Positions 5,665 to 61,769 of a stretch of 64,000 nucleotides of DNA are shown here, piece by piece. The stretch spans positions 16,524 to 80,523 of the IMG/VR virus record IMGVR_UViG_3300017991_000008. One strand, written 5' to 3'. This DNA is from a virus. The first letter of the stretch is position 1, and the number at the start of each line of letters is the position of its first letter. A program made the position numbers and the translations under genes. The notes below the pieces were generated by a model. The model made no database searches. It saw nothing but the letters and a program-made list of their open reading frames with translations, and was not told the DNA's origin.

Positions 5665-6365
5665 GCGGATTATCACCTGCTTCTATTTTGTACGACGCCA
5701 GTGGCAATGCTGTTGGGGTTGTTCAGGATGGATCCATTTATCGACTTCAATCGGATTCCAAGATCGCCAAGAAAGTCACGTCAGGAGATTTGGAGCACCT
5801 TAGAGTCTTGGACGATACCGGTTCGATAAAGGCTACACTGTACAACCCTGACGGAAGTGCGGTTAGTTTCGCCGCGGCTCCGGACGATCCGACCGGCATT
5901 AAGTGTGATTTTTTTCGACGTGCTTTAGCAATTGGAGACAATTCTGATTTGAGAGTTGACGGCTCGACGACTCCGGTCGATTTTACGTTTGAGGCTATTG
6001 CAGATTATGAGCTAATTATTAACGAAGTTGGTTTTGTCATGGCGGCTAGGCGTATTGTTGCTGGTTCCGAGAAGTTTGCCGGGTTAAGTGCTCTTGTGAA
6101 TGGTGTCATTTGTATTTATTACAACGGAACAGCGGAACTTGAGATGGATCGATTAAATGTAAATGAAGATTTTATGCACTTTGCAAGCCCCGGAGGTTAC
6201 AACTTCTGGCCTCTTAACAAGGATCAAATCATAGCCCAAAGGTATTTAAATGGAGTCATCAGATTGGCTGCGGATTCAACGGAAAAACTGATTCTTCGAA
6301 TTGCGGACGATTTGGCATCTGGAATCGATTATTTTAAATGTCGAGTCAAGGCTGTTGCGAGGTAA
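5661..6365 (+). CDS. Hypothetical virion protein
   Basis: ATGA overlap with upstream gene; beta-rich composition; in head-accessory block. Confidence 0.6.
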   Translation: MSGLSPASILYDASGNAVGVVQDGSIYRLQSDSKIAKKVTSGDLEHLRVLDDTGSIKATLYNPDGSAVSFAAAPDDPTGIKCDFFRRALAIGDNSDLRVDGSTTPVDFTFEAIADYELIINEVGFVMAARRIVAGSEKFAGLSALVNGVICIYYNGTAELEMDRLNVNEDFMHFASPGGYNFWPLNKDQIIAQRYLNGVIRLAADSTEKLILRIADDLASGIDYFKCRVKAVAR

Positions 6366-6368
6366 AGG

Positions 6369-7253
6369 ATGCCCACAAAAGTAGAAGGTATAAATTCAGA
6401 TAACTATGGAAATCAGAAGATCTCCATGTCTCCTCCAGCCGGTAGCAGAGTAGATGTTTTGTCAGTGGATTGGTGTGACAAGACAACTTGGTGGCCCGAG
6501 TCAAGTAGGATAGAGAACGAAACACTTTCTGACAGTGGAGATGGGCTGACCTTTAACAGTGTGAACCCCTTTTGGATATGCACCACGAGGGGAAGGATAA
6601 CGGGGGAAGATCATCTCAATGGGGATTATGTGCCAGTCGTGAAAGCCAATGGCGTTGAACAACAAGAGGACGAACCTTTTGGGGGAGACACTCACGATTT
6701 CTCAGTTAACTATGAAGACGGTTCGGTTACGTTCCATGAGGAGCCAGCGACACCGATTGTAGCGACCTATTCCAAGGCCAATGGCTCAAACACAGTTATT
6801 AAGCCCAAAGAAAACAAGATAATCAGACTAACAAAAGTGGAGGTTCAATTTTCTCAAGACATTGTCTTGACCGACGCCATTACGTTCCAGGCGTGGGGCT
6901 ATGTTGATGTGTTCGCGCCGGAACTCTTAACCACAGCAGACCCCCCTGGGCCATACCCACCCGGAACTCTAATTCCCATAAATAACGCGACGATTTATAA
7001 GACTATGCTCGATTACATCAACGAAGCTGCTGGTAGCTATCCAGTGATCCCAGCAATGGGAGGATCGAACAGGGGCACATCTCAGCCTATTCATATTTAT
7101 CGCTGGCCATATGCTGACCGTGCATCAACGGATCTGATAGCGTCTTACGGCATGGAAATTCGTTGTGGTTTACAAAACAACATACCATTTGAGGGGGAAC
7201 ACGCGGTTGCTACCTTTTACGGTATTTCATTGGATGAGCAAAGTTCTGGGTAG
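6369..7253 (+). CDS. Hypothetical virion protein
   Basis: Contiguous ORF in structural operon; NYEDGSVTF..P.T.I.ATY motif typical of phage structural domains. Confidence 0.6.
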   Translation: MPTKVEGINSDNYGNQKISMSPPAGSRVDVLSVDWCDKTTWWPESSRIENETLSDSGDGLTFNSVNPFWICTTRGRITGEDHLNGDYVPVVKANGVEQQEDEPFGGDTHDFSVNYEDGSVTFHEEPATPIVATYSKANGSNTVIKPKENKIIRLTKVEVQFSQDIVLTDAITFQAWGYVDVFAPELLTTADPPGPYPPGTLIPINNATIYKTMLDYINEAAGSYPVIPAMGGSNRGTSQPIHIYRWPYADRASTDLIASYGMEIRCGLQNNIPFEGEHAVATFYGISLDEQSSG

Positions 7254-9113: not shown

Positions 9114-9910
9114 TGGCTAGACTGATACAGAAGATGAAGATTCAGCTACGACGGTTTTCGGCAGTGAGGACCAATAAAGCTTCTATAGTTAGTGCCATTG
9201 GACCATTCAATTTAAACAGCCAGGACTGGACCCTGGTAGTGTCCATTGATGGTGGCGGCGGTCAGACAATTAACATTCTGCAGACGGCGTTTGTTGATCC
9301 CTCTGCGGCGACCGTGGATGAGATGGTGTCGGTAATCGATTCAGGGTTGACCGGTGGAGACGTGTACAAAGACGGAGACGGCGCCCTGGTACTCGGCACG
9401 GACACAGAGGGGGATGGTGGGTCCATTGAAGTTTCTGGCGACGCTGTGGCTGGCCTGCTTGGTTTTACAGTCACATCTGCAATCGATAGCGGGGTCGATG
9501 AAATATTCGGTACCATAAAGCCGGTGGACGACGATACTCAAGAGGGAATAACTCGAATTCGTGAACTCGATCCGGTTACATTGGTTTGCCAGGTGGATCG
9601 CAATAACTGGGGTGGCAGAAGGATGGTTCCAGGGGGGCCACACGAAGAAAAGAAGACTGTGTTTGTGGTTGAAAGGGCCAGGTTGCAAAAAAAGGGGCTT
9701 ATCGACAGCCGGGGAATACCGATGATCAACGTCGGTGACCGTATCGGAAAGTTAATGACCATGTCGGGCAAGTTGGTAGAGTCCTTTGAGGATCCGAATG
9801 GATTGTGGGTTCATGGCGTGGAGAGAGCAGGGCACGGTCTCAAAGCTCACGGAGACAGGATGAACCGGCTGTATTATCTGGAGTGTAGCGAGGACAGGGT
9901 GACGTCATAG
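9113..9910 (+). CDS. Head closure/neck protein with inserted repeated virion module
   Basis: Position after adaptor; aa ~22-118 match the repeated module. Confidence 0.55.
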   Translation: MARLIQKMKIQLRRFSAVRTNKASIVSAIGPFNLNSQDWTLVVSIDGGGGQTINILQTAFVDPSAATVDEMVSVIDSGLTGGDVYKDGDGALVLGTDTEGDGGSIEVSGDAVAGLLGFTVTSAIDSGVDEIFGTIKPVDDDTQEGITRIRELDPVTLVCQVDRNNWGGRRMVPGGPHEEKKTVFVVERARLQKKGLIDSRGIPMINVGDRIGKLMTMSGKLVESFEDPNGLWVHGVERAGHGLKAHGDRMNRLYYLECSEDRVTS

Positions 9911-15307: not shown

Positions 15308-17914
15308 ATGGCCGGCCGTGTTATGAAAACCATATTTGACGTCATTGGACGTGATAGTGGTGCGAGCGCCACGGCCAACCGTGTGTCCACAGCCCTGAAC
15401 ACTATGTCCAACTCGGCCCTGAAGTCAAAAGCCGCCCTGGGGGGAGCCAGTGCGAGCCTGTCACGCACCCAGAAGGTATTGCAATCATCCATGCAGTCCA
15501 TGATGATCGGTGGTGGTTTTTTAAAAATCGGCAGTGGTCTTCTTGATTTTATGGGTGGGGCTACCGACAAGGCTGGTGAGCTCGAATATGAACTAGCCAC
15601 TCTACGAGGTATTTCGGGGGCCACGGCCAAGGATTTGGACCGATTAGCGGCGGCAGCTCAGAAGGCCGGTATCGAAACCCAGTTTACCCCCACCGAGGCG
15701 GTTCAAGGTCTACAGAACCTAGCACAACAAGGCTTTCTCGTAGAACAGCAACTGGGTGCTCTAATGCCATCCTTGCTGCTTTCTGGAGCGTCGGGGGGAA
15801 AGGTGCCCCTTGCGGATGCCGCAAAGCTCACTGCCCAGGTGATAAAGGGGTTCGGACGAGAAGCAGAAGACGCTGGGATCATGGTCGATCAGATGGTCAA
15901 AACTACCACGAAAAGCGGTATGGCCATTGAAGATCTTGCTGGTGCTATGCAGTATGCTTCGTCTGCTGCACAGAACATGGATGTGGATTTCACCTCCACG
16001 TTGGCAACACTTGGTCTAATTAAGAACGTTATCCCCAGTGCCGAGGTGGCAGGTTCGGCGTTTCAGATACTCACGGCCAGATTATCAAAACCAACGAACC
16101 AGAGAAAACTTAGGCAAAATCTTGGAATAGATGTTATCGACCAGGCGACGGGAGAGTTTAGGGGATTTGGTGCGCTGTTACTCGATATTAGTAGCAAATT
16201 CGGATCGATGAAAGGCGGGGAACGAGCTGGCATGATTCAGGACATATTTGGTCCACGTGGAATGAAGGCGATAATGCCATTAATGACACAGCTCGAGAAA
16301 GGAATAACAACCGAAACAGGCAAGGTTCTCAAGGGTCAGGAGGCATGGCAGTACTGGATGAACACCCTAGATCCCGACAAGGTGGCCGGATTTGCCGAAG
16401 AGATGAACAATATGAAATTGGACACTCTCAATGGGCAATTACAGCTACTTTCAGGTTCACTACAGACATTCCAAATAGAACTTGGAAAGGGGACAGCCGC
16501 CCTATCCAAGTCCGCGGTGAAGTATGGACTAAAAGCCTTTAATGCGTTTTTGGAAATCTTCACCAAGTTACCGAAACCGGTGAAAAATGCTGTTAGCGGG
16601 TTCTTGGTATTATCCGGGACACTTATTAAGGTAATAGGTGGCTTCTTCATTTTGAAAGGTTTGATGTCCTTACTGGATATCTCCTTCGGTGGAGTTCTTC
16701 TGACCATAGGAAAAATCCTTTTGCTGGCTGTACCTCTCACACTTCTTTTCTCTGCCCTGGGTGTGGGGATCTATGGTGTCTATCGAACGATCTCCAAAAA
16801 CTTTGGAAAAGCCGGAGACGAGACAGCTTCCTTCTTTGAGAAGCTAAAACTGGGATACAGGGCGGTCACTGATCTGATATCGGACGGTGCGTTATCAAAA
16901 GCCGTTATCGAGGATATGAAGCAGGCAAAGTTCCAGGGGGTGGCCGACTTTATTGGAACGTTTGGTGTATGGCTGGGCAAGGCAAAAGAGTTCTTTAAGG
17001 GGGTGGTAGACGGATTCGATGCCGGTTTGAGACGTCTCACTGGTCCGTGGAATGAGTTTAAAGAAGCTGTGCAGGATGCCTTTGGATCTTGGTTCGATAA
17101 CGCCCAAAGGGGGTCAAAGAGCCTGTCCGAATGGGAGGGCAAAGGAAAGAGCTTTGGCGCCACGTTATCCGGTTTTTCAAAGACAATTATCAAGATGATG
17201 ACCAAGTCTGTGGAGATGGGACAGCGGTTCTCTGAGTGGGCCAGTGATTTCACAATGGCCGATATGATAGATGAAGCCAGGGAGCTTGCCGACACTATCC
17301 AGGACGTACTGAACGGACTACGGTGGCTGCTGGACAAGTTCGGTTATGTGGGTCACATGGTGGATATAGTAGGCAACTTTGGGGAGAACGTAACCTTTGC
17401 CGATTTGATGAGAAAGGGAGAGGGTGGGCCTCTCACAAGCCAAAAACTAATAGAGGGTTCCAGGACGTTTGCAGAGGGACTTAGAAGGGGATCTACGAGC
17501 ATAGAAGGGGTTGGAGAAGTTCCCAGTTCCGCCTTCGGATTTGAAAGCGATGTACAGCGGTTTGTTGGCCGTCGGGCCCGACGTTTGGAAACACTACAAA
17601 AGGCAGGACAGTTCGAGGGCAAAGATGAGGCACTTGCTGCCCTTCAGAGAGTTTTGTTTGTCAGTGCTGTTGAGGCCGGCAAGAAGAGAGCTGCCGACGA
17701 CAAGGAATCAGCACGACGGTTAGAAAAACAGTGGGACGGCATACTCAAGAGAATGGAGCTCTCCTTGGTAAACGCCATGAAAGAAGGCGGGGGTTTGAAG
17801 GGACTCAAACTGGTTATAGGTGAACACGAGTTTGGACGATTAGTTGACCAAGCCGGAGAAACCAAAAAAGAAGATAGTTATGACTGGGAGGATATGGGGC
17901 CACCTGCTCCCTAG
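15308..17914 (+). CDS. Tape measure protein (TP901-like domain)
   Basis: T.FT.TEA..G...LA..GF, S..GS.F..L..RL, hydrophobic middle segment; 868 aa. Confidence 0.92.
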   Translation: MAGRVMKTIFDVIGRDSGASATANRVSTALNTMSNSALKSKAALGGASASLSRTQKVLQSSMQSMMIGGGFLKIGSGLLDFMGGATDKAGELEYELATLRGISGATAKDLDRLAAAAQKAGIETQFTPTEAVQGLQNLAQQGFLVEQQLGALMPSLLLSGASGGKVPLADAAKLTAQVIKGFGREAEDAGIMVDQMVKTTTKSGMAIEDLAGAMQYASSAAQNMDVDFTSTLATLGLIKNVIPSAEVAGSAFQILTARLSKPTNQRKLRQNLGIDVIDQATGEFRGFGALLLDISSKFGSMKGGERAGMIQDIFGPRGMKAIMPLMTQLEKGITTETGKVLKGQEAWQYWMNTLDPDKVAGFAEEMNNMKLDTLNGQLQLLSGSLQTFQIELGKGTAALSKSAVKYGLKAFNAFLEIFTKLPKPVKNAVSGFLVLSGTLIKVIGGFFILKGLMSLLDISFGGVLLTIGKILLLAVPLTLLFSALGVGIYGVYRTISKNFGKAGDETASFFEKLKLGYRAVTDLISDGALSKAVIEDMKQAKFQGVADFIGTFGVWLGKAKEFFKGVVDGFDAGLRRLTGPWNEFKEAVQDAFGSWFDNAQRGSKSLSEWEGKGKSFGATLSGFSKTIIKMMTKSVEMGQRFSEWASDFTMADMIDEARELADTIQDVLNGLRWLLDKFGYVGHMVDIVGNFGENVTFADLMRKGEGGPLTSQKLIEGSRTFAEGLRRGSTSIEGVGEVPSSAFGFESDVQRFVGRRARRLETLQKAGQFEGKDEALAALQRVLFVSAVEAGKKRAADDKESARRLEKQWDGILKRMELSLVNAMKEGGGLKGLKLVIGEHEFGRLVDQAGETKKEDSYDWEDMGPPAP

Positions 17915-35624: not shown

Positions 35625-36623
35625 ATGTCCACAGAATTATTTCGACAGGAACGTGCGGGACAGATCCGTGCTTCAGAGTGTTGCGTGTTAATGGGGTGCG
35701 AGGGGTACGATGGCAAGATCGCCTTTGACCTATTTTTGGAGTTGAAAAAGGGGGTAGGGTTTGAACCTGTTTCCAGTTATGATTCCGACAGTGACGAGCA
35801 CGTTGAGTACGAATCCGATGACATACGCCGTGGCAATCTATACGAGCCCTTTGCTCTGCGTTTTGCATCCGAGGATCTAGAGATAGGAATCGATTTTGCC
35901 AAAGACAAGGACGACGGCATTAGACGGTTCTCTCGCCGGCATCCCAAGCATAAATTCATGGGAGCAATGCCGGACGGGGTATTTGAAGACGGATGGATAG
36001 CCGAGGCAAAGTGTCCCAGACCCCATGTTCTAAGGAAGCAATTAGAGGAAGGTCCCTACGAAAAGTTCATCTGGCAGATGACCATGCAACTGGCGTGTTA
36101 TCCCGAAGCACCTGGGGCTAGGTTTATTCTGTATGATTGTGTGGAATGTCGTTCGTACGTGTACCAGTTTCCCAGGGAGGCCATGAAGATAGAGGCTCTT
36201 GAGAAGCGTTGTGTGGATTTTTGGACACGCCATATAGAAGGGGACGAGCCCTTTTCTCAGGACGATTGGGACAAGCCGGTACCAGTGCCACCGGTTAACC
36301 CTTTAAAGCAAGCAGATTACACTGTCGTGGCAGGGAGGGCATGGTCTGAAACCGTTCGGAGGTTTGTGAAGTCTAAAAATACGATCAAGGCTGCGGAGAT
36401 AGATCTCGACGCGGCAAAGACAATGATAGCAGACAGTGCACAGGCTGTCGGGCTCGAGAAGATCAAGGTGGACGGGCATAGGTTCCTGGTTCGATACGCA
36501 ACTAGAAGGTCTCTGGACAAAAGGTCTGTGAAGGCTGATTATCCAGATTTGGATTTTGACAAATATATGCGGGACGGGAAACCGTTCCTGGAAGTGAGAC
36601 ACTACCCACCGGGTAGAAGCTAA
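35625..36623 (+). CDS. yqaJ: YqaJ/lambda-exonuclease-like recombination nuclease
   Basis: R...I.ASE, RG...EP, HP...FMGA.PDG, EAKCP, Q...Q. Confidence 0.85.
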   Translation: MSTELFRQERAGQIRASECCVLMGCEGYDGKIAFDLFLELKKGVGFEPVSSYDSDSDEHVEYESDDIRRGNLYEPFALRFASEDLEIGIDFAKDKDDGIRRFSRRHPKHKFMGAMPDGVFEDGWIAEAKCPRPHVLRKQLEEGPYEKFIWQMTMQLACYPEAPGARFILYDCVECRSYVYQFPREAMKIEALEKRCVDFWTRHIEGDEPFSQDDWDKPVPVPPVNPLKQADYTVVAGRAWSETVRRFVKSKNTIKAAEIDLDAAKTMIADSAQAVGLEKIKVDGHRFLVRYATRRSLDKRSVKADYPDLDFDKYMRDGKPFLEVRHYPPGRS

Positions 36624-36633
36624 AGGAGAAGAC

Positions 36634-37614
36634 ATGAACGATTCACACAGTGGAGGGATCCAGGTATTCAGCACAACCAAGTCTATTTTAAAGAAGTACG
36701 AGAACAGTATGAAGTCAGTACTTCCGGCCAGTATCGATATTGACAGGATCAAGGGTATTGTGTTTGAGGCTGTGAGAAACAAGCCCAAAGACATGGCCAA
36801 GATCTTTACAACGTCCACCGGTCAGGCTTCTTTCATTACGGCAGTGATCAGGTCGGCCAAGGTGGGGCTGGCACCAGACGGCCAGGTGGCGGCCATTGTC
36901 CCTCGCAGGGTAAAGAACGTCTGGATGGCCAACTTCGAACCCATGTGGAGAGGGCTAGCTGTGCTTGCGTACAACTCGGGACAGGTGAAAGCAATCCGGG
37001 GGGACTACGTGTACACCGAGGACGAGTTTGAGTACGAGGACGGGCTTTATGTTAAGCTCAGGCACAAGAAAGCACCCAAGCCGGATCGGGGCAAGCTAAT
37101 GGCGGCCTGGGCAGTTGTGGAAACTATCCATGGGGGACTCATACCGAAGGTGGTTTACCAGTTCGACGTGGACAGGGCCAGACAGGGGGTTACCCACTCA
37201 ACCAACCCGAGAGCGGCAGAGAACCAATGGGACGCCGAGATGTGGCGCAAGACGGCATACAAGCAAGCACTAGCCACGGCTCCAATGTCAGACGAGCTCA
37301 GAACCGCAATAGTGTCCGATGACCAGGGGGTAGCAGCGGAACTATCTGGTGACGAGGGCATGATTATCGATATCGACCCAGTGATAGGAGACGACGAGGA
37401 TTTTGACGGAGCAGGGGAGATGTCAGACGCTGAATTGACCATGGCCATGTCTGCGGAAGCTGCCCAGAAACCCAAAGAAGAACCGGCGCCACATATACAG
37501 GAACCGATAACAAAACCCGAACCTGAGAATGAGCCTGAACCTGCTGGGTTACCTGGGATTCCCAAAAATACCAGTAATCAAAACACGGAGATATCGAAAA
37601 GCAGGGATTTTTAG
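36634..37614 (+). CDS. recT: RecT-family single-strand annealing protein
   Basis: LP......R, A.VGL.PDG..A.IVP, WRGL..LAY.SG, W.EMWRKT. Confidence 0.9.
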   Translation: MNDSHSGGIQVFSTTKSILKKYENSMKSVLPASIDIDRIKGIVFEAVRNKPKDMAKIFTTSTGQASFITAVIRSAKVGLAPDGQVAAIVPRRVKNVWMANFEPMWRGLAVLAYNSGQVKAIRGDYVYTEDEFEYEDGLYVKLRHKKAPKPDRGKLMAAWAVVETIHGGLIPKVVYQFDVDRARQGVTHSTNPRAAENQWDAEMWRKTAYKQALATAPMSDELRTAIVSDDQGVAAELSGDEGMIIDIDPVIGDDEDFDGAGEMSDAELTMAMSAEAAQKPKEEPAPHIQEPITKPEPENEPEPAGLPGIPKNTSNQNTEISKSRDF

Positions 37615-40224: not shown

Positions 40225-40800
40225 ATGCAAAAGAGACCGATTCGATATTTCCTGGTCTACGTGTGTTCGTTGGCTTGGGACTTGGTGGTTTGGTTAATCA
40301 TGCTTCTCATGTGGTTATTCTGGGGGACGAAACTACGTTGGGAAGAGGGAGTGTGGTTTGAGTTCAAGCACAACTCCTGGCCGACCCGTACCTGGTACCG
40401 AAAGAAAAAGAACGGCAAACCTGTGGAGATCCCGGTCGAGCAGCAACCCATTTTGGGCAGGTGGGAAACGTGGGGAGGGACATCATTTTGTCATGGTGGT
40501 TTTTTGGGCCCGGGCCGGTCTGGTGGCAAGGGTATCGATACTGACACAGAGGAGCATGAACATATCCACACAGAGCAAGCAGAGACGGCCATGATGTACG
40601 CTTTGATTATAAACCTAGCCTTTATAGCGGAAAATCTGCTTCGGGGCTATGAGCCGGTGTGGTGGTTCCACTTGGTCATGTGGGGTATTGGTTGGATCCT
40701 GTTTTATGGTTGCAGTGCACTCGTGGCATGGCTCAGGGGGGAGGATCCTTACCGGGGCAACATAAATGAGGAGTCTGCTTACTCTCAGACGGAGGACTAG
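40225..40800 (+). CDS. Membrane protein with HExxH motif
   Basis: About 3 hydrophobic segments; EHEHIH.EQ; NINEESAY. Confidence 0.6.
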   Translation: MQKRPIRYFLVYVCSLAWDLVVWLIMLLMWLFWGTKLRWEEGVWFEFKHNSWPTRTWYRKKKNGKPVEIPVEQQPILGRWETWGGTSFCHGGFLGPGRSGGKGIDTDTEEHEHIHTEQAETAMMYALIINLAFIAENLLRGYEPVWWFHLVMWGIGWILFYGCSALVAWLRGEDPYRGNINEESAYSQTED

Positions 40801-48221: not shown

Positions 48222-48458
48222 ATGGACTGGACGAAGCAAGTTCCACAAACACGGGGCATCTATCTTGGTTATTTTATACCAGAGGAAAGGGTAGTTCCTG
48301 TGGATGTGGATTGGGCAAACGGCGAGGAGAAATCATTTCTCGAACCATGGATCCCAGGTTATGAATATGCGCTGGAGTGGGGTGACTTTAAGTTGTGGTT
48401 CGGCCCTATAGAATTCAATCTACCAAAAGGTTTCAAGATTCCAAAAGACACCGTATGA
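48222..48458 (+). CDS. Small hypothetical protein
   Basis: AGGAG SD; W....P...G.Y pattern common in phage small proteins. Confidence 0.55.
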   Translation: MDWTKQVPQTRGIYLGYFIPEERVVPVDVDWANGEEKSFLEPWIPGYEYALEWGDFKLWFGPIEFNLPKGFKIPKDTV

Positions 48459-48883
48459 GACTCTGGCATGAAAAATTGATAAGCGTTCTACCGAGGGCTC
48501 AACTACTGGGACAGCACAGGGAGTGCTGTGCTCTGAGGGGGCTTGGGTGGGGTCGAAAACATTCAACTGTCGATTATGTATTTAAGTATTCACCGATGTG
48601 TCTTGGTTATTATCACATTAAAGTTCTTTCTGAGATGAAAAAGAGGGGATACAATATTGAGGGGAAATGGTGGTACCCGTTTTATAGAGGGAAACGATGC
48701 GAGGAGTGGAGGTATTCTCAATTGATTGTCGACACCTGGATGTTTCCCAGAATAGACAACGGACTGCCAATCTACCCCGAACACAACGACCGATATTTAG
48801 AAAACTGTATTGAGAACCTGAAAGGGAAGGGCATAGAGATATCGCTAAAGGGAGGCGGACGTGTATCAGTACGGTGTGAATGA
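48455..48883 (+). CDS. TIGR02328-family / pyrimidine-dimer DNA glycosylase-like protein
   Basis: MRLWH..LI..LPR.QLLGQHRECCALRG.GWG.KH.TVDYVF...YPEH...YL.EC signature. Confidence 0.8.
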   Translation: MRLWHEKLISVLPRAQLLGQHRECCALRGLGWGRKHSTVDYVFKYSPMCLGYYHIKVLSEMKKRGYNIEGKWWYPFYRGKRCEEWRYSQLIVDTWMFPRIDNGLPIYPEHNDRYLENCIENLKGKGIEISLKGGGRVSVRCE

Positions 48884-49037
48884 CACTTGCTGTTTGTTAT
48901 CCGATGCGGGCATTGTATATGCCACGGGTCCATGGAATGAAAAATCATGGTCTGATAGACAACAACTGCCCGGCGATCATTATGTGACATTGCAGAGCAT
49001 CGAGTCATTTTGTGTGTCGCCGCCGATGGTGCTCTAA
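48861..49037 (+). CDS. Small beta-rich protein (58 aa, not in ORF track)
   Basis: GGAGG SD plus GTG; MYQYGVNDTCCLLSDAGIVYATGPWNEKSWSDRQQLPGDHYVTLQSIESF. Confidence 0.55.
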   Translation: MYQYGVNDTCCLLSDAGIVYATGPWNEKSWSDRQQLPGDHYVTLQSIESFCVSPPMVL

Positions 49038-49267
49038 TGCTGCGTAGTAGAAAACAAAAATATCAGCCATGGTCAGGGTCAGGGGTAGAGTCATGGTCGG
49101 GGTCATGGTCGGGGTCATGGTCGGGGTCAGGGTCAGGGTCAGGGCCACGGTCAGAGTCAGGGTCGCGGTCCTGGTTATGGTCATGGTCAGGGTCAGGGTT
49201 ATGGTCATGGTCAGGGTTATGGTCAGGGTCGTGGTCAGGGTCGTGGTCACGGTCATGGTCAGGTTAA
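49037..49267 (+). CDS. Ser-Trp/Ser-Gly low-complexity repeat peptide
   Basis: TAATG coupling; basic MLRSRKQK leader followed by about 32 (W/G/R)S dipeptides. Confidence 0.5.
49070..49264. repeat. Tandem hexamer array, consensus NGGTCA
   Basis: About 32 units of TGGTCA/GGGTCA/TGGTCG/CGGTCA/GGGTTA. Confidence 0.9.
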
Positions 49268-49282
49268 CAAAGGATTTAACAA

Positions 49283-49525
49283 ATGAAACAACGAATCAAA
49301 CCAAATTATGAAGGTGAGGAACCTATGTGTAGCGATAAGAGTGGTGATTGTCCGCGTTTTCCGAGAAATCTAGAAGGTTTTCTTGATAGAAAGTCACATT
49401 GTTGGGGTTGTGATGGTTCATGTATTCCTGGCATTAAACGAGATAGAGACAAGTACAAACAAGCATTAGAAGAGGATCATAAAATACTTTCAAATGGCGA
49501 GACTGCACAAAAAACGAAGGGATAA
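49283..49525 (+). CDS. Cassette gene A (Cys domain KP.Y...EP.CS..CIP..RDRDK)
   Basis: Paralogous to 49527 and 50656. Confidence 0.6.
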
Positions 49526-49526
49526 G

Positions 49527-49859
49527 ATGAGTAAAATAAACCCGAAATACGTAGACGGTGAGCCGGTATGCAGCGAGAATTGCCCTGCGTGGAAACGCGA
49601 GGCAGCTCCGGTATACGGCGAGGGATGCACTATATCATGGGCGGGCAGAGCCGGTTCGCTTTGCATTCCCGCATTGCGTCGAGACCGCGACAAACTAGAA
49701 GCCGAGTTGGCAGAGTGCAAGCGGGAAAATGAGCGGTTAAAGGGACTAATAAAAATGTTAGATTTAGACTGTACAGACTGTGCCAATTGCGACAATCACG
49801 AAGCGTGTTCAGAGTGCAGAGGATTTTCGAATTATATCGAGGAGAAAACCGATGAGTAA
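49527..49859 (+). CDS. Cassette gene B (Cys domain, LEAELAECK coil, Cys-rich tail)
   Basis: Paralogy; ends in junction repeat. Confidence 0.65.
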   Translation: MSKINPKYVDGEPVCSENCPAWKREAAPVYGEGCTISWAGRAGSLCIPALRRDRDKLEAELAECKRENERLKGLIKMLDLDCTDCANCDNHEACSECRGFSNYIEEKTDE

Positions 49860-50238
49860 AAAATATCATCAATGGACAGACGACGATGACAAAAAACTCA
49901 AAATAGCAATTGAAGAGTGTGAGATTTTATTCGAGCACTACAAAAATCAAAGCGGATCATACAATGATGGTAATGTTTGGGACGCTATTGCAGGGCGATT
50001 AGTTCCAAATTTATGTGTCACTGGCGCAGCGTATCGCCGCCGATGGGAGGTGCTCAATCAGCGTAAAAATGACGCATGGGAAAAAACCTCAGAAATGGTG
50101 CGGACGTATGAACGCGATCTGGCAGAAACAACGTTTGACGGTGTATCAGAAATACTCGGAAACGTTGACGCGCTATTTGATAAATTTGTCGAGCTGGAAA
50201 AGAAAATAGATAAACTTTTAGGCATTTGGGAGGCATAG
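49852..50238 (+). CDS. Cassette gene C: Myb/SANT-like (RsfA-like) HTH protein
   Basis: WTDDDD..L...W..IA..L...T..A.R.RW. Confidence 0.6.
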   Translation: MSKKYHQWTDDDDKKLKIAIEECEILFEHYKNQSGSYNDGNVWDAIAGRLVPNLCVTGAAYRRRWEVLNQRKNDAWEKTSEMVRTYERDLAETTFDGVSEILGNVDALFDKFVELEKKIDKLLGIWEA

Positions 50239-50249
50239 GGAGAAAACCG

Positions 50250-50663
50250 ATGAGTAAACCCAAAGACTTTTTAGTGGGCACGGGAAAAACTGACGAGGAT
50301 AAAAGACAAGAAGAAGAACGCCTTGATGAATTGAAAAGAGTTATAGCTGAAAGTAAAGAAAATAGAAAACCAAAGCAGTTTTTAGATGGAAACCCCTGTA
50401 TAGGAGACTTCCCTAGCATGGATTGGTATCGAAACAAATGCGAATCCCTCGAAACCGAGCTGGCAGTGGCACGGGGAAAAAACGAGAGGTTGAAAATAAC
50501 ACTAAAAGATTTCATCAAACAAGCTCTTTCGGATTTTAAAGGAATAGAAGGCGAGATGTTAAAAACTAAATTTGCTGAATGGTCTTCAGTTGCCAATACA
50601 CAACGATGGGGCGAAGAGATATTGGAAAGACTGAGAGGTAAAAAAAAGAAAACCGATGAGTGA
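50250..50663 (+). CDS. Cassette gene D (coil repeat, unique flanks)
   Basis: Starts in junction repeat; LETELAVARGKNERLK. Confidence 0.6.
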   Translation: MSKPKDFLVGTGKTDEDKRQEEERLDELKRVIAESKENRKPKQFLDGNPCIGDFPSMDWYRNKCESLETELAVARGKNERLKITLKDFIKQALSDFKGIEGEMLKTKFAEWSSVANTQRWGEEILERLRGKKKKTDE

Positions 50664-50961
50664 GATCAAACCCAAATACATAGATGGCGAGCCGATGTGT
50701 AGTGGTGAGGAATGTTCCCGGTGGGGTTTTGGAAATACGGATGACCCCCAAAATAGAACATGTTTTAGGAGTAATTCCCCCTGTATTCCTGCACTACGCC
50801 GTGACCGTGACAAACTAGAAGCCGAGCTAGCAGAGTGCAAGAGATCGGAATTAATAGCAGTTAAGGCTATGACTTATCTAGCTGGAAAGCTATCTAATAA
50901 AGATAAGCTATCCCCACAGTGGATTAAAGAAGCTTTGGAAATAGTGGAGAAAACCAAATGA
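50656..50961 (+). CDS. Cassette gene E (Cys domain, coil, unique tail)
   Basis: KPKYIDGEPMCS...CIPALRRDRDKLEAELAECK. Confidence 0.65.
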   Translation: MSEIKPKYIDGEPMCSGEECSRWGFGNTDDPQNRTCFRSNSPCIPALRRDRDKLEAELAECKRSELIAVKAMTYLAGKLSNKDKLSPQWIKEALEIVEKTK

Positions 50962-51179
50962 GCATTAGAAATGATACGGTTAGAGATTTAATATCGCATC
51001 TACAACACTACGGTGAGGTTACATGTGAACACTGTGAAAGACAATTAGTGCTTGAAAATATGATAGATGTGACAATCAATATAAAAAAACTGGTGGACGG
51101 AGATAGAATGGTTGGAACGGTATGGTGGGAGTGTCCGGTATGTTTAGATATGGTTAGTAGCGATTTTTGGATACGATGA
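50958..51179 (+). CDS. Cassette gene F: zinc-ribbon protein
   Basis: CEHC...CPVC. Confidence 0.6.
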   Translation: MSIRNDTVRDLISHLQHYGEVTCEHCERQLVLENMIDVTINIKKLVDGDRMVGTVWWECPVCLDMVSSDFWIR

Positions 51180-51195
51180 CTGGAGGAGAAAACCG

Positions 51196-51669
51196 ATGAG
51201 TGAGCAGCACATAACTATTATAAGGGCTCATGAGTGCAAGCCGTTGGATTTACAAGCGTTGAGGTATTGGCTACACATAACCCGCACAGATAGTGAGTGG
51301 ATTGTAAAAAATGCCGATGATTGGGGAGCTATACAGCGCGAGGCAATAAAAAAACTCGAAGCCGAGCTAGCAGAGTGTAAGGCGGAATGTGAGCGGTTAG
51401 TAAAAAGCAGAGCAACTATCGCTGAAGAGCAAATAATTTTACGAAAAGATTTAGATGAAGCTCAGCGTCACTGGGATAAAACTCATCGACAACTTAAACC
51501 TCTCGAAACCGAGCTAGCAGAGTGTAAGGCAGGCGTTATGAATCTATGTATTCAATGGAGAGAAAAAAAAGGCTGCGTTGGCGATGGAGATTGTGAATAT
51601 GACGGCAATGCAAGTCCCGCATGTCGTTGTGAAATAGCTAAAATACAACAGATCGTAGCACCTAAATAG
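51196..51669 (+). CDS. Cassette gene G (two coil repeats, Cys-rich tail)
   Basis: KLEAELAECK and LETELAECK. Confidence 0.65.
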   Translation: MSEQHITIIRAHECKPLDLQALRYWLHITRTDSEWIVKNADDWGAIQREAIKKLEAELAECKAECERLVKSRATIAEEQIILRKDLDEAQRHWDKTHRQLKPLETELAECKAGVMNLCIQWREKKGCVGDGDCEYDGNASPACRCEIAKIQQIVAPK

Positions 51670-51685
51670 AAAAGGAACCTAATAA

Positions 51686-52324
51686 ATGAACGAAAAGAGG
51701 ATACCATCAGATCACTATCCAACCCCAACGCCACTTGTGGACCGGGGTATAATGATAGCACTGGATCGCTTTTCCCGGTGCAACAATTGGCTATCAGTAA
51801 AACCGAACAGGTTAACATTTTTGGATCCCGGATGTGGTCCAGATGCTCGATTTGCTCAACACGCTGTTTCCCTGCATGTCAATGAGGTTGTGGGCGTGGA
51901 TATTAATGAGCCAGGAAAGGGGAAGTTACCTCCACAGATGTACTTCGAGACAGATTACTTGAAGAAAAAAGGGAGGTGGTATCGGCCAGGATACTATGAC
52001 ATTATATGTGGAAACCCTCCGTTTTCACTTGCCGAGAAATTTGTTGTGACATCGTTGGAGTTGGTTTCTCCCTTGGGAGTGGTTTGTTTGCTACTTCGAT
52101 TAGGATTTTGGGCCTCACAGAAAAGGTTCGATTTTTATGAAAACTATCCCCCGGCCAAAACGATTGTCTTGGCAGAACGACCATCATTTTATTCCGACAC
52201 TGGCATGGGGAAGACAGATGGTACGGAGTACGCCTTTTTTTTATGGGATGGTGCTCAAGTTAGAAAAATTCTAAATGGAATGGGAGTCAAACCTACTATT
52301 GAACGCATATCATGGAGGGATTGA
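51686..52324 (+). CDS. Amino-type (m6A/m4C) DNA methyltransferase
   Basis: D.YPTP, LDPGCG, GVDI, IICGNPPF, RPSF...G.TD..EYA. Confidence 0.85.
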   Translation: MNEKRIPSDHYPTPTPLVDRGIMIALDRFSRCNNWLSVKPNRLTFLDPGCGPDARFAQHAVSLHVNEVVGVDINEPGKGKLPPQMYFETDYLKKKGRWYRPGYYDIICGNPPFSLAEKFVVTSLELVSPLGVVCLLLRLGFWASQKRFDFYENYPPAKTIVLAERPSFYSDTGMGKTDGTEYAFFLWDGAQVRKILNGMGVKPTIERISWRD

Positions 52325-53300: not shown

Positions 53301-53761
53301 CAGGACCATGGTATGACAGAAACTCTCGTTTGTTCACAAAGTTTACAACACCCCAAGACAGCCCTTTCCCGAGTGGATTGAAACTCAATTGTAAGACCGG
53401 AGAGCATTGTATATATGTCAGCCACGGAGAAGAGATCCCTGATGAATGTCCAATTTGTGCTGGAAAGAAATGGCCACCGGAATGTGAATGTGCACAGCCT
53501 GTTATTGGAGACCGAGATCCCCTAACCAGAACCTGGCATTGCCTCGGGTGCAACTTGCCTCTAAGAGAAGACAGGCTTGAAGGGTTGATGCCACCACACG
53601 ATATCGAAGAGGGAGAGTTTCCATGTCTTTGTTTTGTGGATGAAAATGGTATTATAGACGGGGTGATCGATGAGTACACACCGGATATTTGTCGGCAAAC
53701 TATCGGAATAGAGCTGCCCATGAGGTATGCAAGGAGGAAAAAATGCGCAGAGAGCAGATAA
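53297..53761 (+). CDS. Cys-rich hypothetical protein
   Basis: GGAGG SD, ATGA overlap; CPIC, CEC, CLGC. Confidence 0.55.
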   Translation: MTGPWYDRNSRLFTKFTTPQDSPFPSGLKLNCKTGEHCIYVSHGEEIPDECPICAGKKWPPECECAQPVIGDRDPLTRTWHCLGCNLPLREDRLEGLMPPHDIEEGEFPCLCFVDENGIIDGVIDEYTPDICRQTIGIELPMRYARRKKCAESR

Positions 53762-54171
53762 TTAACCGTGTTGGGATCCTGATTTTAGCGGCTGCCTTGC
53801 TGGTTCCGGTACTAGTATCGAGCCAACGGGACGATTCTTGGCCCGAGGTTCGACGGTATCCTGCGACCATGGTACGTGTCGTGGATGGTGATACCTTCGA
53901 CGTGACGGTGGATCTCGGGTTTGACATATTCACCGACCAGAGGCTTCGCCTTGCTGTGGTAGATGCCTGGGAAACCAGGGGAGAGGAGAAAGAAAAGGGG
54001 CTCAAGGCCAAGGGGTTTGTTGAGCAACTTGCGGGTCCAGGTGCTAGCATCGTCGTGATCACGGATGGGAAGAAGGGGAAGTATGGCAGGGTGATAGCCA
54101 GCATTGACGTGGGGGGAATGGACCTCGGCACCGAACTCCTTGAGAACGGTCACGCTGAATACTACAAATAG
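53743..54171 (+). CDS. Thermonuclease (SNase-like) with N-terminal anchor
   Basis: VRVVDGDTF, RL..VDA.E, GKYGR.IA, L...GHA. Confidence 0.9.
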   Translation: MRREQIINRVGILILAAALLVPVLVSSQRDDSWPEVRRYPATMVRVVDGDTFDVTVDLGFDIFTDQRLRLAVVDAWETRGEEKEKGLKAKGFVEQLAGPGASIVVITDGKKGKYGRVIASIDVGGMDLGTELLENGHAEYYK

Positions 54172-54198: not shown

Positions 54199-55002
54199 AT
54201 GTTTTTAAAATTACAGAGACCAATAATATTTTTCGATCTGGAGACCACCGGAACCGATGTGGAGAAGGATCGAATAATCGAGTTGGCGGCTATCGAATTT
54301 ACACCTGATGGCATGATCCATGAATCAAAAAGGATGAGGTTCAACCCAGGTGTTCCAATACCTCCAGAGGCAACGGCCGTCCATGGGTTCACAGATGAAG
54401 ATGTGAAAAATTGTCCATCGTTTGGAAGTAAGGCATCAGCTATTAACGACTCTTTCAAGGGGTGTGATCTTGGTGGATACAACATAATTAGATTTGACAT
54501 TCCTATGTTGCAGTCTGAGTTGGGACGCTGTGGTTACACCTTGGATTTATCCGTGGACATTATCGATGTGATGCAAATTTATCATCAGCGCGAGCCCAGG
54601 AATCTGGAAGCGGCTGTTCGAAAATACACGGGAAAAGAACACACCGAAGCTCACTCGGCATTAGAAGATGTGAAGGCTACAATCGACGTGCTCAAGGGTC
54701 AGATGGAGGTGTACGACGATTTGCCACGAACACCGTGTGAAATATATGAACAGCTAAGGGATCCTGACCAAGTGGATTTTGCGGGAAAGATCAGATGGGT
54801 GGGCGACGACATGACACTTACTTTTGGAAAGGAGGCTGGGAAGCCATTTCGGCAGATACCAACCGGCTATTTCCACTGGATAAGAAAGAATGGAGTTGTG
54901 GGTCCAGATGTAATGCACGTCATTTCGCTGGCCATTGACGGTCGATATTTAAGCAAAGAGGAATGGGAATATGATCGAGCACGTTTCAGGGGTAGTAGGT
55001 AG
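54199..55002 (+). CDS. DEDDh 3'-5' exonuclease (Pol III epsilon-like) with DUF3820-like tail
   Basis: FDLETTG, GYN..RFD, H.A.ED; FGK..GK....IP..Y..W. Confidence 0.9.
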   Translation: MFLKLQRPIIFFDLETTGTDVEKDRIIELAAIEFTPDGMIHESKRMRFNPGVPIPPEATAVHGFTDEDVKNCPSFGSKASAINDSFKGCDLGGYNIIRFDIPMLQSELGRCGYTLDLSVDIIDVMQIYHQREPRNLEAAVRKYTGKEHTEAHSALEDVKATIDVLKGQMEVYDDLPRTPCEIYEQLRDPDQVDFAGKIRWVGDDMTLTFGKEAGKPFRQIPTGYFHWIRKNGVVGPDVMHVISLAIDGRYLSKEEWEYDRARFRGSR

Positions 55003-58415: not shown

Positions 58416-59371
58416 TTTGGCTTATATTAGTAGCCCTTCTGGTGGGGTGTGGAGCCCCTGGGGAACGATTTGATACCGATACCGACACTGACACTGATAC
58501 CGACACAAACACCTATTTCGACACCGATACTGAAACCGATACAAATACAGAAGAAGATACGGACACTTCCACCGACACCGGTACCGACACTGACACCGGC
58601 ACAGACTCTGATATTGACACCGATACAGATACCGACACTGACACAGACACCGATGCGGATACGGACACCGATACCGACACTGATACCGACACCGATACGG
58701 ACACCGATACCACGCCGGAGGAGTGTCCGTTTGAATGTATGCCAGGGGCGGAATGTTACGGAATAATTCATGATTATCCTTGTCCAGGACCGGAGGTGTG
58801 TTGTGAGCAAGGAACGGGAGACACCGACACTGATACAGATACCGATACTGACACGGACACAGATTCCGATACGGATACTGACACGGATACTGACACCGAT
58901 ACCGACACTGATACGGATCCAGAGCCCGGTCCCTGTGGTCTCGTGGATATTCCCGACGGTGTTTACTGTGATGAGACAACCGGGTTTTTGTGGTGGATTG
59001 ATCCGCTTGAAGAAATAACGCACGAGAGTGCGGTCACGATCTGTGAATCCTCATCGTTTGCAGGGCTGACCGAATGGCGAATACCAACCTTTGACGAGGC
59101 TCGATCCCTTATACGTGGCTGCCCGGTGACGGAAACCGGTGGTACTTGTGAGGGTGAATTCGGAGATGATCCATGCGACGGCAGTTGTAACTGGCAGGAG
59201 GGACCGGGACCAGGTGGGTGTTATTGGCCAGACGAGTTTGGTGATCAGTGTGGCAACTGGGTAGCCGTCTGGGAGGGATGGCGAATTAGATACATAAACG
59301 CCGAGGTCCATCCCTATGGTTGGAGTACGACGATCCTTTTCGACTTGAGATGCTTACACGATCCGCTATAA
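58412..59371 (+). CDS. Lipoprotein with (DT)n linkers, Cys-rich module and Lcl/DUF1566-like C-terminal domain
   Basis: Lipobox LLVG-C13; D..TG.LW, A...C......G...WR.PT..E..SL. Confidence 0.8.
   Translation: MIWLILVALLVGCGAPGERFDTDTDTDTDTDTNTYFDTDTETDTNTEEDTDTSTDTGTDTDTGTDSDIDTDTDTDTDTDTDADTDTDTDTDTDTDTDTDTTPEECPFECMPGAECYGIIHDYPCPGPEVCCEQGTGDTDTDTDTDTDTDTDSDTDTDTDTDTDTDTDTDPEPGPCGLVDIPDGVYCDETTGFLWWIDPLEEITHESAVTICESSSFAGLTEWRIPTFDEARSLIRGCPVTETGGTCEGEFGDDPCDGSCNWQEGPGPGGCYWPDEFGDQCGNWVAVWEGWRIRYINAEVHPYGWSTTILFDLRCLHDPL
58472..58918. repeat. Two Asp-Thr coding hexamer tracts (58472-58711, 58820-58918)
   Basis: GA(C/T)AC(N) repeats with free synonymous variation. Confidence 0.9.
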
Positions 59372-59400: not shown

Positions 59401-59943
59401 ATGGCAAATCTTCCTCGACCTTACGACATTAATGATCCCCACGAGATGTTCCGATTGTATCGTGAACTATACGGCTACATGAAGGTATCACTACACGACG
59501 GGACGGATCTAACTGGAAGGCGACATGCTCTTGACGCCCTCCGCGATCTAAGAAGAAAAGCAGAGAACAACGCAGCTAAACAGGCCAAGGATGCCATTGA
59601 ATCCGTTAAGCTGTCGAGCCTGGTCGATTTTGAATTTGAGGTGGTGAACGAGATTGAAAGGGTATTGCGGGAAGACGGTTTTGACGTTATCAGAGAGAAG
59701 AAAATAGGACCTCGCAGTCGGATCGACCTGTATCTTCCCCAGTACCGGATCGGGATCGAAGTAAAGAAGGGGAAACCCAATACAAAGATCGTAGCCGCTC
59801 AGCTTGAGCGATATGCCTTTAGCTCAGACATTAATGCTCTGATCCTTGTCAGTGAACGGGGGTTGCACCGTCACCTATCCGACGCCCATGGTAAGCAGAT
59901 CCATTATGTATCTCTGGCCGGAAATTGGGGGCTCACAGTATGA
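59401..59943 (+). CDS. PD-(D/E)xK-fold nuclease
   Basis: E...L...G....RE.....RIDL....IGIEVK. Confidence 0.65.
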   Translation: MANLPRPYDINDPHEMFRLYRELYGYMKVSLHDGTDLTGRRHALDALRDLRRKAENNAAKQAKDAIESVKLSSLVDFEFEVVNEIERVLREDGFDVIREKKIGPRSRIDLYLPQYRIGIEVKKGKPNTKIVAAQLERYAFSSDINALILVSERGLHRHLSDAHGKQIHYVSLAGNWGLTV

Positions 59944-61769
59944 CGGTCGTTCCCGATTATCTCAAAGAGCCCAGTCTTGAAGGGCATAAGTATGGCAAGC
60001 TGTATTGGGATAAGAAGGCCCAGATGTTTGGTTTAATTGGGGAACCAGTACTACTAGAGTTCGCAAAAAGGATCTTTCCTGGGGCTCGTGTTTCGTACAA
60101 GTTCGGATCGGAAAGTAATTACCGTGAATATCAGACGGTCATGTTCCACAAGAGCAGGAGGGAAGTGTCCGATCTTAACTGGTTGCTTATGAGATTCCCG
60201 GTGGAGGTGGTATGTGACAAAATACTCAAACAATATCGCAACGAAGCCATCCAGCAGTGGAATGACAGGGCGTCTGGGTACGATTTAAAGAGAACAGCAC
60301 CACCATCTGATTTTTTGGGGAAGCTATACCCGTTTCAAGAGGCAGCGGTGACGTTTCTCACCACTAATAAAAGGTGCCTGCTCGGGGACGGCATGGGACT
60401 CGGGAAAACCTGGGAAGCTCTGGGAGCTGTAGCGGCATCAGGGAAATATCCGGTCTTGATAGCGTGCGAGACACAGGTACAACGCCAGTGGCAAAGAGTG
60501 ATCGGTTCACTGTTCGATCTGCCGTGCAAGATGGAGCAGAGTTTTTTTGATTCTCCATTCGATCTAGCCTGTAGACGTGGCGAGGCGTTGGCACCGATAC
60601 TGAGAACCCGTACACCCTACAAACTACCGGACACACCGTTTGCGATTATTCATTACGGATTACTGAAAGACTGGAAAAAGCAGTTATTGGATCGGGGCTG
60701 GCCCACCCTGATTCCCGACGAGGTGCAATCATTTCGACACCAAACCTCTCAGAAATATTCCGCCTTCTCTCTACTATCTTCCCAGGCTGAAAACGTCTGG
60801 GGCTTATCGGGAACACCGGTCTACGGATACGGGGCCGAAATGTGGGCCGTAATGAACATAATTGACTTTCACTGTTTGGGATCCTGGGAATCGTTTTCAC
60901 GGGAGTGGTGTACCGGATACGGGGAAAAGATAGTCGAGGATCCCAAAGCACTCCACGGATTTCTAACCAGGGAGGGTTTCTTACTCAGACGACGGGCTAC
61001 CGATGACGATGTGAATATCGACCTCCCACCCATTATCCGAAAGATACAGGACGTCGAACAGGATGAGGAGCTGTATGAACAATTGATGACAGCGGCCAGA
61101 CAGAAGGCCAGAAACTACGAAAGAAAGGATATTGACCGTCATTTCCGATGGCGTTTGGGTGGAGAGATAGAAAGGGAGACCAGACAGGCCGCAGGGCTGG
61201 CCAAGGCTCCGTTTGTTGCTGAGGTTATTAAGTCTGTTATTGAGGCCGGGGAACGCCCCCTGGTATTCGCCTGGCACCACTCTGTGCACGACATATTCCA
61301 GGAGAGGTTGAAAGAGTATTCGCCGGCAGTGTTGACCGGCAGACAAACCGAGAAACAGAAGGACGACAATCTGAGAAGGTTTGTGAATGGTGACACGCCG
61401 ATGGTGCTGTTATCCCTGCGTTCAACAGCAGGTCTCGATGGGTTACAGCACCGGGGAACGATGTGTATCAATGCTGAACTCGATTGGAGTCCAGCTATCC
61501 ATAGCCAGTGTGAAACCAGACTTGGGCGTATCGGTGTGAATGAAATGATCGCGGAGATCCCGTCATTGTATTGCGTTGCTAGATCTGGATACGACGAGAC
61601 CATGCTCGATGTCTTGGGTTTAAAGGCTGGTCAGTTTGTTGGCATCATGGGTGATGAGCCCGAATCACACGAGGAGGAGAAACAGCAGGAGCAACGGGTC
61701 AAGGGAAGAATTCGTGAATTAGTCAAGAAGCTAAATGCGGAGGCTGAGGGCATTGTGCTCCAACCATAA
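59940..61769 (+). CDS. SNF2-family helicase/ATPase
   Basis: LYPFQ, GDGMGLGKT, DEVQ, LSGTP, VFAWH, GLDGLQ, W.P....Q...R..RIG. Confidence 0.9.
   Translation: MTVVPDYLKEPSLEGHKYGKLYWDKKAQMFGLIGEPVLLEFAKRIFPGARVSYKFGSESNYREYQTVMFHKSRREVSDLNWLLMRFPVEVVCDKILKQYRNEAIQQWNDRASGYDLKRTAPPSDFLGKLYPFQEAAVTFLTTNKRCLLGDGMGLGKTWEALGAVAASGKYPVLIACETQVQRQWQRVIGSLFDLPCKMEQSFFDSPFDLACRRGEALAPILRTRTPYKLPDTPFAIIHYGLLKDWKKQLLDRGWPTLIPDEVQSFRHQTSQKYSAFSLLSSQAENVWGLSGTPVYGYGAEMWAVMNIIDFHCLGSWESFSREWCTGYGEKIVEDPKALHGFLTREGFLLRRRATDDDVNIDLPPIIRKIQDVEQDEELYEQLMTAARQKARNYERKDIDRHFRWRLGGEIERETRQAAGLAKAPFVAEVIKSVIEAGERPLVFAWHHSVHDIFQERLKEYSPAVLTGRQTEKQKDDNLRRFVNGDTPMVLLSLRSTAGLDGLQHRGTMCINAELDWSPAIHSQCETRLGRIGVNEMIAEIPSLYCVARSGYDETMLDVLGLKAGQFVGIMGDEPESHEEEKQQEQRVKGRIRELVKKLNAEAEGIVLQP

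Follow-up and report, generated by a model that had tools for sequence, protein, structure and literature searches.

A candidate translational coupler repeated at the gene borders of a phage small-gene array and its probable part in cassette exchange

Seven small genes (A–G) lie back to back at positions 49283–51669 of a 64,000-nucleotide (nt) stretch of viral DNA, referred to here as the window, and the borders between B and G are built around a shared repeat of 16–22 nt. The window comprises bases 16524–80523 of the IMG/VR virus record IMGVR_UViG_3300017991_000008, which is 95,380 bp long and has direct terminal repeats; the whole record, which comes from an uncultivated phage, is called G000 below. 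All long reading frames of the window are on the plus strand. With a little better than even confidence, we favor the reading that the junction repeat is a portable unit of stop codon, Shine–Dalgarno (SD) sequence and start codon that couples neighboring genes, and that it also marks the point of crossover, and probably acts as such, when gene cassettes are exchanged through general recombination. The array stands apart in composition as well. A preliminary description of this DNA, made from the sequence alone, had noted that the region is AT-richer than its flanks, and the GC content in sliding windows bears this out: 42.4% in the array compared to 49.3% in the genome, within the lowest 0.4% of equal-sized windows.

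The starts of five consecutive genes, C, D, E, F and G, fall inside the junction repeat (Table 1), in agreement with the preliminary description, whose observations proved right wherever they could be checked; three of the copies are exact, one has two mismatches and one is a spacer variant. The exact form, GGAGAAAACCGATGAG, is found at 49841, 50239 and 51185, and these are its three occurrences in the 95,380-bp genome, all of them in the array. Allowing up to one mismatch across the whole genome returned the same three copies and nothing else. At up to three mismatches, the window contained one match outside the array (position 9711, three mismatches), where shuffled windows lead one to expect about one. 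The octamer ATGAGTRA is similarly concentrated, with five of its seven genomic occurrences being gene starts in the array. Gene B has only a weak, degenerate version of the junction at its own start (GGGATAAGATGAGTAAA). At the B/C junction (J1), the coding sequence of B reaches its stop codon 5 nt past the A of the ATG of C, and in the variant at the E/F junction (J4) the spacer is one base longer (GGAGAAAACCAAATGAG). The sequences flanking each copy show no similarity to the flanks of the other copies on either side, and the junction is therefore an island rather than the edge of a duplicated gene. Among the dispersed repeats of the genome, the only real families are this junction, a second repeat inside the array genes that encodes LEAELAECK, and one peptide-repeat gene.

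Alignment of 18 junction copies from three phage lineages (G000 and its relatives G001 and L114) gave the consensus ggagaAAACCgATGAGTrA, in which GGAG stands 7 nt before the ATG. All 18 copies are on the plus strand and almost all precede an ATG, the exception being one degenerate copy in L114. Conservation across the copies is highest on the spacer, the ATG and the second codon (AAACCGATGAGT), not on the SD. The start region is also rich in stop codons: ATGA provides TGA in frame +1 and ATGAGTAA or ATGAGTGA provides a stop in frame +2, and in 16 of the 18 copies each of the two other frames meets a stop no more than 8 nt from the ATG. Because of these stops in ATGAGTRA, an upstream gene arriving in frame +1 or +2 is closed within 8 nt of the next start. 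Of the upstream genes that run into a junction, seven terminate in frame +2 with tails resembling ...TDE-stop, three terminate in frame +1 and one is in frame 0; seven unrelated proteins thereby carry a tail encoded by the junction (...TDE, TDD or TNE followed by the stop). The preliminary description had stated that the repeat supplies both SD and ATG and that, read in the upstream frame, it gives B and D the ending ...EKTDE-stop and E the ending ...EKTK. Both statements hold: B ends ...EEKTDE-stop inside J1, E was seen to end ...VEKTK-stop, and the stops in the two other frames close any upstream frame except the gene's own. Passage in frame 0 would fuse the two genes, as exemplified by the open reading frame (ORF) at 6141–6725 of the G001 locus L093. 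This 194-codon ORF contains an in-frame junction copy (...EEKPMSEKEK...) and may be two fused cassettes or a gene with an internal restart.

Signals for transcription and RNA structure were looked for around the junctions. In the 8-kb stretch that was scanned, 11 promoter-like sites were found compared to 11.8 expected, and terminator-like sites showed no excess; neither kind occurred on the coding strand inside the array. An Rfam search gave no match, 80-nt windows around all five junctions folded no more stably than shuffled sequences (z from −0.7 to +1.5), and no inverted repeats were found at the junctions. No plus-strand stretch of at least 10 nt is complementary to the junction, which makes an antisense RNA acting on it unlikely. 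A promoter-like site on the minus strand spans J1 (49831–49860; TTTACT, an 18-nt spacer and TATAAT, with 10 of 12 matches) and is probably due to chance, since its −10 box lies in unique sequence. Judged from its anatomy, the junction would act as a termination–reinitiation coupler inside one operon.

Four useful relatives were obtained from metagenomic collections (G001, L114, L022 and L023/L103). G001 is a complete phage of 104,014 bp from the same sample series (loci L093 and L105–L110) and has a small-gene array of its own, in which the same junction precedes nine genes. G000 and G001 are very distant from each other. No more than about 4.6 kb can be aligned between them, at 65–73% identity except in some short stretches of the array; the two phages have 31 ORFs in common with a median amino-acid identity of 38%, and six common core genes are saturated at synonymous sites (proportion of synonymous differences, pS, 0.72–0.89). 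L114, with its near-identical copies L115, L124 and L132, represents a third lineage that carries the same junction at two to three gene starts. The three lineages were found in the same samples, and their co-infection is therefore plausible.

L022 and L023/L103 show the same array architecture with a different junction sequence. In L023, a junction of the form ...AAGAAAGCAGGYAGGGGAATGAGT occurs six to seven times, and the array begins directly after the same hexamer repeat that precedes the array of G000. L022 has a junction of the form ...GAAAGCAGGGGGGAGTGATGA three times, together with one copy of the L023 type. L022 and L023/L103 have in common a 31-nt junction island of 97% identity whose flanks are unrelated. 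Across IMG/VR, the exact 16-mer matched 79 loci, about the number expected by chance (as estimated from motif length and collection size), and the one true relative among them was L093, that is, G001. Several other phages with loosely similar starts of the type GGAG-N7-ATGAG were taken as having generic strong start sites and not as members of the group. Relatives found through the SbcC-like ATPase (L004–L021) have no such arrays, and the closely related strains L112 and L121–L130 were not usable as a control for junction-free arrays.

Comparison of gene C among the three lineages places homology breakpoints at the junction. C is 90.5% identical over 398 nt between G000 and G001 (pS 0.37; proportion of nonsynonymous differences, pN, 0.03) and 88.7–89.4% identical to its counterpart in L114, under strong purifying selection (pN/pS about 0.03–0.08). 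In every pair, the homology extends from the junction (window position 49840) to the stop codon of C (50237), and nothing can be aligned on either side except the next junction. Upstream of C stands B in G000; at this place G001 has an unrelated gene of 83 codons and L114 another unrelated gene, of 103 codons. In each case the junction supplies the stop codon of the upstream gene. Downstream, C is followed by D in G000, by a gene termed X in G001 and by a gene with a SEC-C motif in L114. Between G001 and L114, gene X has 94% identity as far as the junction, beyond which the B/E-like genes have diverged. L114 has an extra 115 nt between the end of X and the junction, encoding a 44-codon mini-gene whose start lies at a degenerate copy of the junction and whose end, ...EKTDER-stop, lies in an intact copy. 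G001 has the gene order C-X-BE, and L114 has X'-mini-BE'-Y-C.

Comparison with relatives had been proposed in the preliminary description, for which an identical gene order, or breakpoints unrelated to the repeat, would have counted against shuffling. Instead, gene order differs between the lineages and homology breaks at the repeat at the left end of C in all three lineages, at the right end of X and at the insertion of the mini-gene. Cassette exchange at the repeat is supported by these sequence comparisons. More distant homologues of C (44–60% amino-acid identity, about 15 loci) are preceded by ordinary, unrelated ribosome-binding sites without the motif, which ties the motif to this group of arrays rather than to gene C itself.

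A second layer of repetition lies inside the genes. The sequence encoding LE(A/T)ELAECK is present once each in B, D and E and twice in G. Its copies are 90–100% identical in L114, G001 and a fourth lineage, L140, where they occur in different genes, and homology between the phages stops at them. The copies in L140 are 90–100% identical to those in G and B. The single part of D found elsewhere is an internal piece of 110 nt that is 88% identical to L140, and this homology also stops inside the repeat. In G, the two copies (KLEAELAECK and LETELAECK) bracket a segment shared with L022 and L023/L103, and the C-terminal part of E is related to a G001 gene different from the one matched by its N-terminal domain. 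This second repeat looks like a site of half-gene shuffling.

Taken as a whole, the array is a promoter-less, one-directional run of accessory genes whose borders from B/C to F/G carry the coupler, with GGAG as SD, AAAACCG as a fixed 7-nt spacer and ATGAGTRA as start codon plus stops in both other frames. A ribosome finishing the upstream gene would stop within 8 nt of the next ATG and re-initiate there, so that any gene joined at the coupler would be expressed without signals of its own. The genome comparison shows that the coupler marks sites of exchange, insertion and reordering of single genes among three co-occurring lineages that otherwise lie very far apart. The junction is a likely substrate for recombination: exchange would proceed by general recombination at the shared 16–22 nt, probably during co-infection and with the recombinase of each phage (RecT/YqaJ in G000 and the RecA-like protein in G001), and the LEAELAECK repeat would have the same role at the level of half-genes. 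Both RecT and YqaJ, which the preliminary description had named as the enzymes that could use such short homologies, are encoded by G000. The link to RecT is not general, however, as G001 has the same junction array with neither RecT nor YqaJ and encodes a RecA-like recombinase instead; Erf is absent from both phages. Recombination at the junction, if it occurs, is therefore not tied to RecT.

In a more tentative extension of this reading, which we regard as possible, the junction would be an 'address' that defines exchange groups, in which co-infecting phages with no other relationship draw on a common pool of single-gene cassettes. G000, G001 and L114 would use one version of the address and L022 and L023 another. 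A gene dropped at the coupler would be expressed at once because the coupler closes the other frames and restarts translation. Such a system would correspond to the cassette pool of integrons but work with no integrase, and LEAELAECK would add a second layer in which half-genes are shuffled.

Several observations weigh against a part for the junction in recombination. In L114, the right end of C abuts a gene that has no junction, so that this joint, at least, did not involve a repeat on both sides. In X, the homology reaches its left limit inside the gene and not at the junction. The comparison covers three distinct lineages and yields no more than about four independent breakpoints, and copies of G000 itself in other samples, all 99.7–100% identical, showed no structural variants of the array. 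As known from Red/RecET recombineering, homologies of 16–22 nt are close to the shortest that RecT-type proteins use efficiently. The junction together with the first 17 codons of C (49841–49903, 63 nt) is invariant in the three lineages, and the invariance extends to synonymous sites (P ~1e-4); over the whole gene, 38% of third codon positions vary, and in the remainder of C 10–12% of sites differ and about 19% of positions vary among the three copies. Either selection on the start region or repeated homogenization or conversion from the junction inward could account for this, and the invariant start fits selection on translation initiation at least as well as it fits recombination. Within C, the site patterns of the three alleles were not clustered (P = 0.55), giving no sign of recombination inside the gene. 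Illegitimate recombination, with selection then keeping the intact genes, would likewise leave breakpoints at gene borders, and because the junction is itself the gene border, exchange at a linker and illegitimate joining are inseparable by sequence alone.

Some of these points lend weight to the possibility that the motif is purely an expression signal, either for termination–reinitiation or as the site of a translational regulator of phage or host origin, with no part in recombination; mosaic joints would then fall at the motif only because it is the gene border. We consider this explanation somewhat doubtful. Conservation centered on the spacer, the ATG and the second codon is as expected for a start-codon operator, three lineages with synonymously saturated core genes share one motif, the first 17 codons of C are frozen at synonymous sites, and no repeat is required at the right end of C in L114. 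The start-associated sequence (SAS) of Cluster K mycobacteriophages, which has the same position and orientation, was likewise proposed to function in translation initiation (PMC3203893). On the other hand, no RegA or RegB homologue was found, a weak negative result as the controls were silent too, no RNA structure was detected at the junctions, and the lack of a plus-strand complement of 10 nt or longer makes regulation by antisense RNA unlikely. A pure expression signal also leaves unexplained why unrelated upstream genes take their last codons from the motif and why a mini-gene sits between a degenerate and an intact junction copy. An expression signal and a crossover point are not mutually exclusive.

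Two further explanations are far less probable. If the repeats were leftovers of the tandem duplication of one ancestral small gene, with the paralogues keeping their 5' ends, the N-terminal domain common to A, B and E and the LEAELAECK piece common to B, D, E and G would be accounted for. Yet C, D, F and G resemble one another in nothing but ATGAGTRA, the junction copies have unrelated upstream sequences, and J1 and J2 are identical at 20 of 20 positions with random flanks. The same junction also precedes unrelated genes in G001 and L114, and the distant homologues of C lack the motif. An origin by duplication is very improbable on this evidence and can be considered largely refuted. We also give little credence to a site-specific system in which the junction is the target of a dedicated, unrecognized recombinase or nuclease, of an integron-like or homing-like kind. 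The junction is indeed a short, oriented and highly conserved site at cassette borders, and an SNase-like and an RNase_T-like gene lie nearby. Neither G000 nor G001 has a tyrosine integrase (PF00589), for which all 14 control genomes were positive, so that the term integrase-free in the preliminary description is upheld. There are no inverted repeats or hairpins at the site, and the few proteins common to G000 and G001 include no evident recombinase.

Among known systems, the junction works in the manner of the short conserved boundary sequences, or linkers, of the modular theory of phage evolution (summarized in PMC3029335, with citation of the original proposals), which stand at module borders amid unrelated DNA, with homology starting or ending at them and exchange occurring by general and not site-specific recombination. 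In the present phages, too, a short common sequence has non-homologous DNA on one or both sides, as seen for C, for X and for the 31-nt island of L022 and L103. What differs is that the linker here is a defined stop/SD/start unit of 16–22 nt located at five to nine consecutive borders of single small genes.

The PeSL (promoter-early stem-loop) cassettes of T4-type phages (PMC2839356, PMC4122927) likewise consist of small, non-essential genes in a variable region separated by a repeated regulatory motif, at which insertions, deletions and replacements distinguish related phages, as is the case here. The 3' end of the PeSL also carries an SD and a start codon, and excised mini-circles have been shown for these cassettes (PMC2839356, PMC4122927). 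PeSLs are built of many more parts, having a sigma-70 promoter and a terminator hairpin, whereas the present junction has neither and would act on translation inside one operon. Given the lack of a plus-strand promoter at the junctions and of a hairpin, assignment as a PeSL was rejected.

The Cluster K SAS (PMC3203893) is an asymmetric motif of about 13 bp with an SD core, a few bases upstream of the ATG. It has one orientation, precedes non-structural genes only, is conserved across subclusters before unrelated gene families and sometimes contains the stop codon of the upstream gene. The junction shares the asymmetric SD core, the single orientation, the position mostly before an ATG and the occurrence before different gene families across phages. 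SAS copies are spread over half a genome and are read as translation signals, with no role in gene exchange shown, whereas the junction copies are contiguous, reach through the start and second codons and coincide with mapped homology breakpoints. The junction was not assigned to the SAS, as its sequence differs from GGGATAGGAGCCC and the phage is unrelated; the resemblance is positional only.

The label integron-like, used in the preliminary description, survives as an analogy only. Promoter-less accessory cassettes that point in the same direction and are gained, lost and reordered are common to both, and all cassettes here have one orientation. The array has no IntI, no attI and no attC-like hairpin sites, and exchange is presumed to be homologous. 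With no tyrosine integrase, no inverted repeats and junction folds no more stable than shuffles, it was not classed as an integron. The array is set apart from these systems by the very small size of the unit, the restriction to translation signals, the closure of both other frames and the mapped exchange points between distant phages.

Searches of Pfam and PHROGs assigned no function to genes A–G beyond coiled-coil noise and a weak Myb match for C. An Atlas search with B returned leads only, including an Ea22-like one at a score of 0.78. The predicted model of C (predicted local distance difference test score 84.5) shows a three-helix Myb/SANT-like bundle followed by a 70-residue helix, and a fold search gave weak matches to Myb-domain structures in the PDB (E 0.47). 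The C family comprises more than 50 clusters in phage small-gene arrays. One homologue belongs to an unrelated phage that has its own 24-nt intergenic SD repeat, GCGGTACCCGTCGAGGATGAGGAG, before four consecutive small genes (L111, 380–1555), where no such matches are expected by chance.

The array is preceded by a 58-codon ORF and 32 copies of GGTCAG (together 48861–49263), with all frames open across the repeat. The pair is conserved in L023/L103, with 300 nt at 80% nucleotide identity. The 174-kb phage L104 has a counterpart of the ORF with 80% amino-acid identity, followed by a different hexamer array and then by CCA-adding-enzyme-like and tRNA-like sequence, with no gene array; the hexamer repeat thus goes with the 58-codon ORF rather than with the cassette array. 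Searches of GenBank phages for near and distant DNA similarity to this phage gave no match. Elsewhere in G000, dense repeat units of the ACCGACACTGA type occur at window positions 58470–58900 and, just before the window, at G000 positions 15640–16090. They can also be aligned to G001 near 59900–60080 and are probably part of a peptide-repeat gene. In G001, a 16-nt motif containing TTGACA, TGCTTGACAAAACTCT, at 40671, 51301, 85685 and 103501 is likely a phage promoter family.

Table 1 Features of the array and its surroundings (window positions; J, junction; aa, amino acids).
Feature	Position	Strand	Description
Gene A	49283–49525	+	80 aa; Cys-rich domain, a paralogue of that at the N-termini of B and E; no junction before start
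Gene B	49527–49859	+	110 aa; A-like N-terminal domain, KLEAELAECK coiled-coil piece, Cys-rich tail
Gene C	49852–50238	+	128 aa; predicted three-helix Myb/SANT-like domain and long helix
Gene D	50250–50663	+	137 aa; near-orphan; C-terminus ...KKTDE-stop in J3
Gene E	50656–50961	+	101 aa; B-like N-terminal domain, then KLEAELAECK; C-terminus ends in J4
Gene F	50958–51179	+	73 aa; CxxC...CxxC zinc-ribbon-like pattern
Gene G	51196–51669	+	157 aa; coiled coil; last gene of array
J1 (B/C)	49841–49860	+	SD GGAG, spacer AAAACCG, then ATGAGTAA
J2 (C/D)	50239–50258	+	20/20 identical to J1; directly after the TAG stop of C
J3 (D/E)	50645–50664	+	2 mismatches, in SD part (AAAG for GGAG)
J4 (E/F)	50946–50963	+	variant GGAGAAAACCAAATGAGC; ATGA start/stop overlap
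J5 (F/G)	51183–51204	+	22/22 identical to junction before B/E-like gene of G001
Intragenic repeat family	49695, 50448, 50815, 51355, 51502 (span 49695–51530)	+	27–48 nt; encodes LE(A/T)ELAECK
LE(A/T)ELAECK copies	49695–49723, 50448–50476, 50815–50843, 51355–51383, 51502–51530	+	
YqaJ-like exonuclease	35625–36623	+	12 kb upstream of array
RecT	36634–37614	+	12 kb upstream of array
SbcC-like ATPase			upstream neighbor
Pyrimidine-dimer glycosylase	48395–48883		upstream neighbor
58-codon ORF, then 32-copy GGTCAG tandem repeat	repeat at 49071–49263		upstream neighbors
DNA methyltransferase	51686–52324		downstream neighbor; start without junction
SNase-like gene	53689–54171		nuclease near array, role unassigned
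RNase_T-like gene	54199–55002		nuclease near array, role unassigned

The array would represent a rarely documented case of phage genes shuffled at conserved linkers. Whether phage mosaics arise at short conserved linkers or by random illegitimate joining followed by selection is a long-standing question, and the linker model has been weakened by how seldom linkers can be seen at the joints (PMC3029335). In the present phages, the linker is explicit, short and functionally readable as stop, SD and start. It stands at one gene border after another, and exchange points mapped between phages with substitution-saturated core genes fall on it. The anatomy of the junction also suggests a design rule, in which an eight-base start, ATGAGTRA, that closes the other frames lets almost any gene plug in and be expressed, and which could be reused in synthetic operons.

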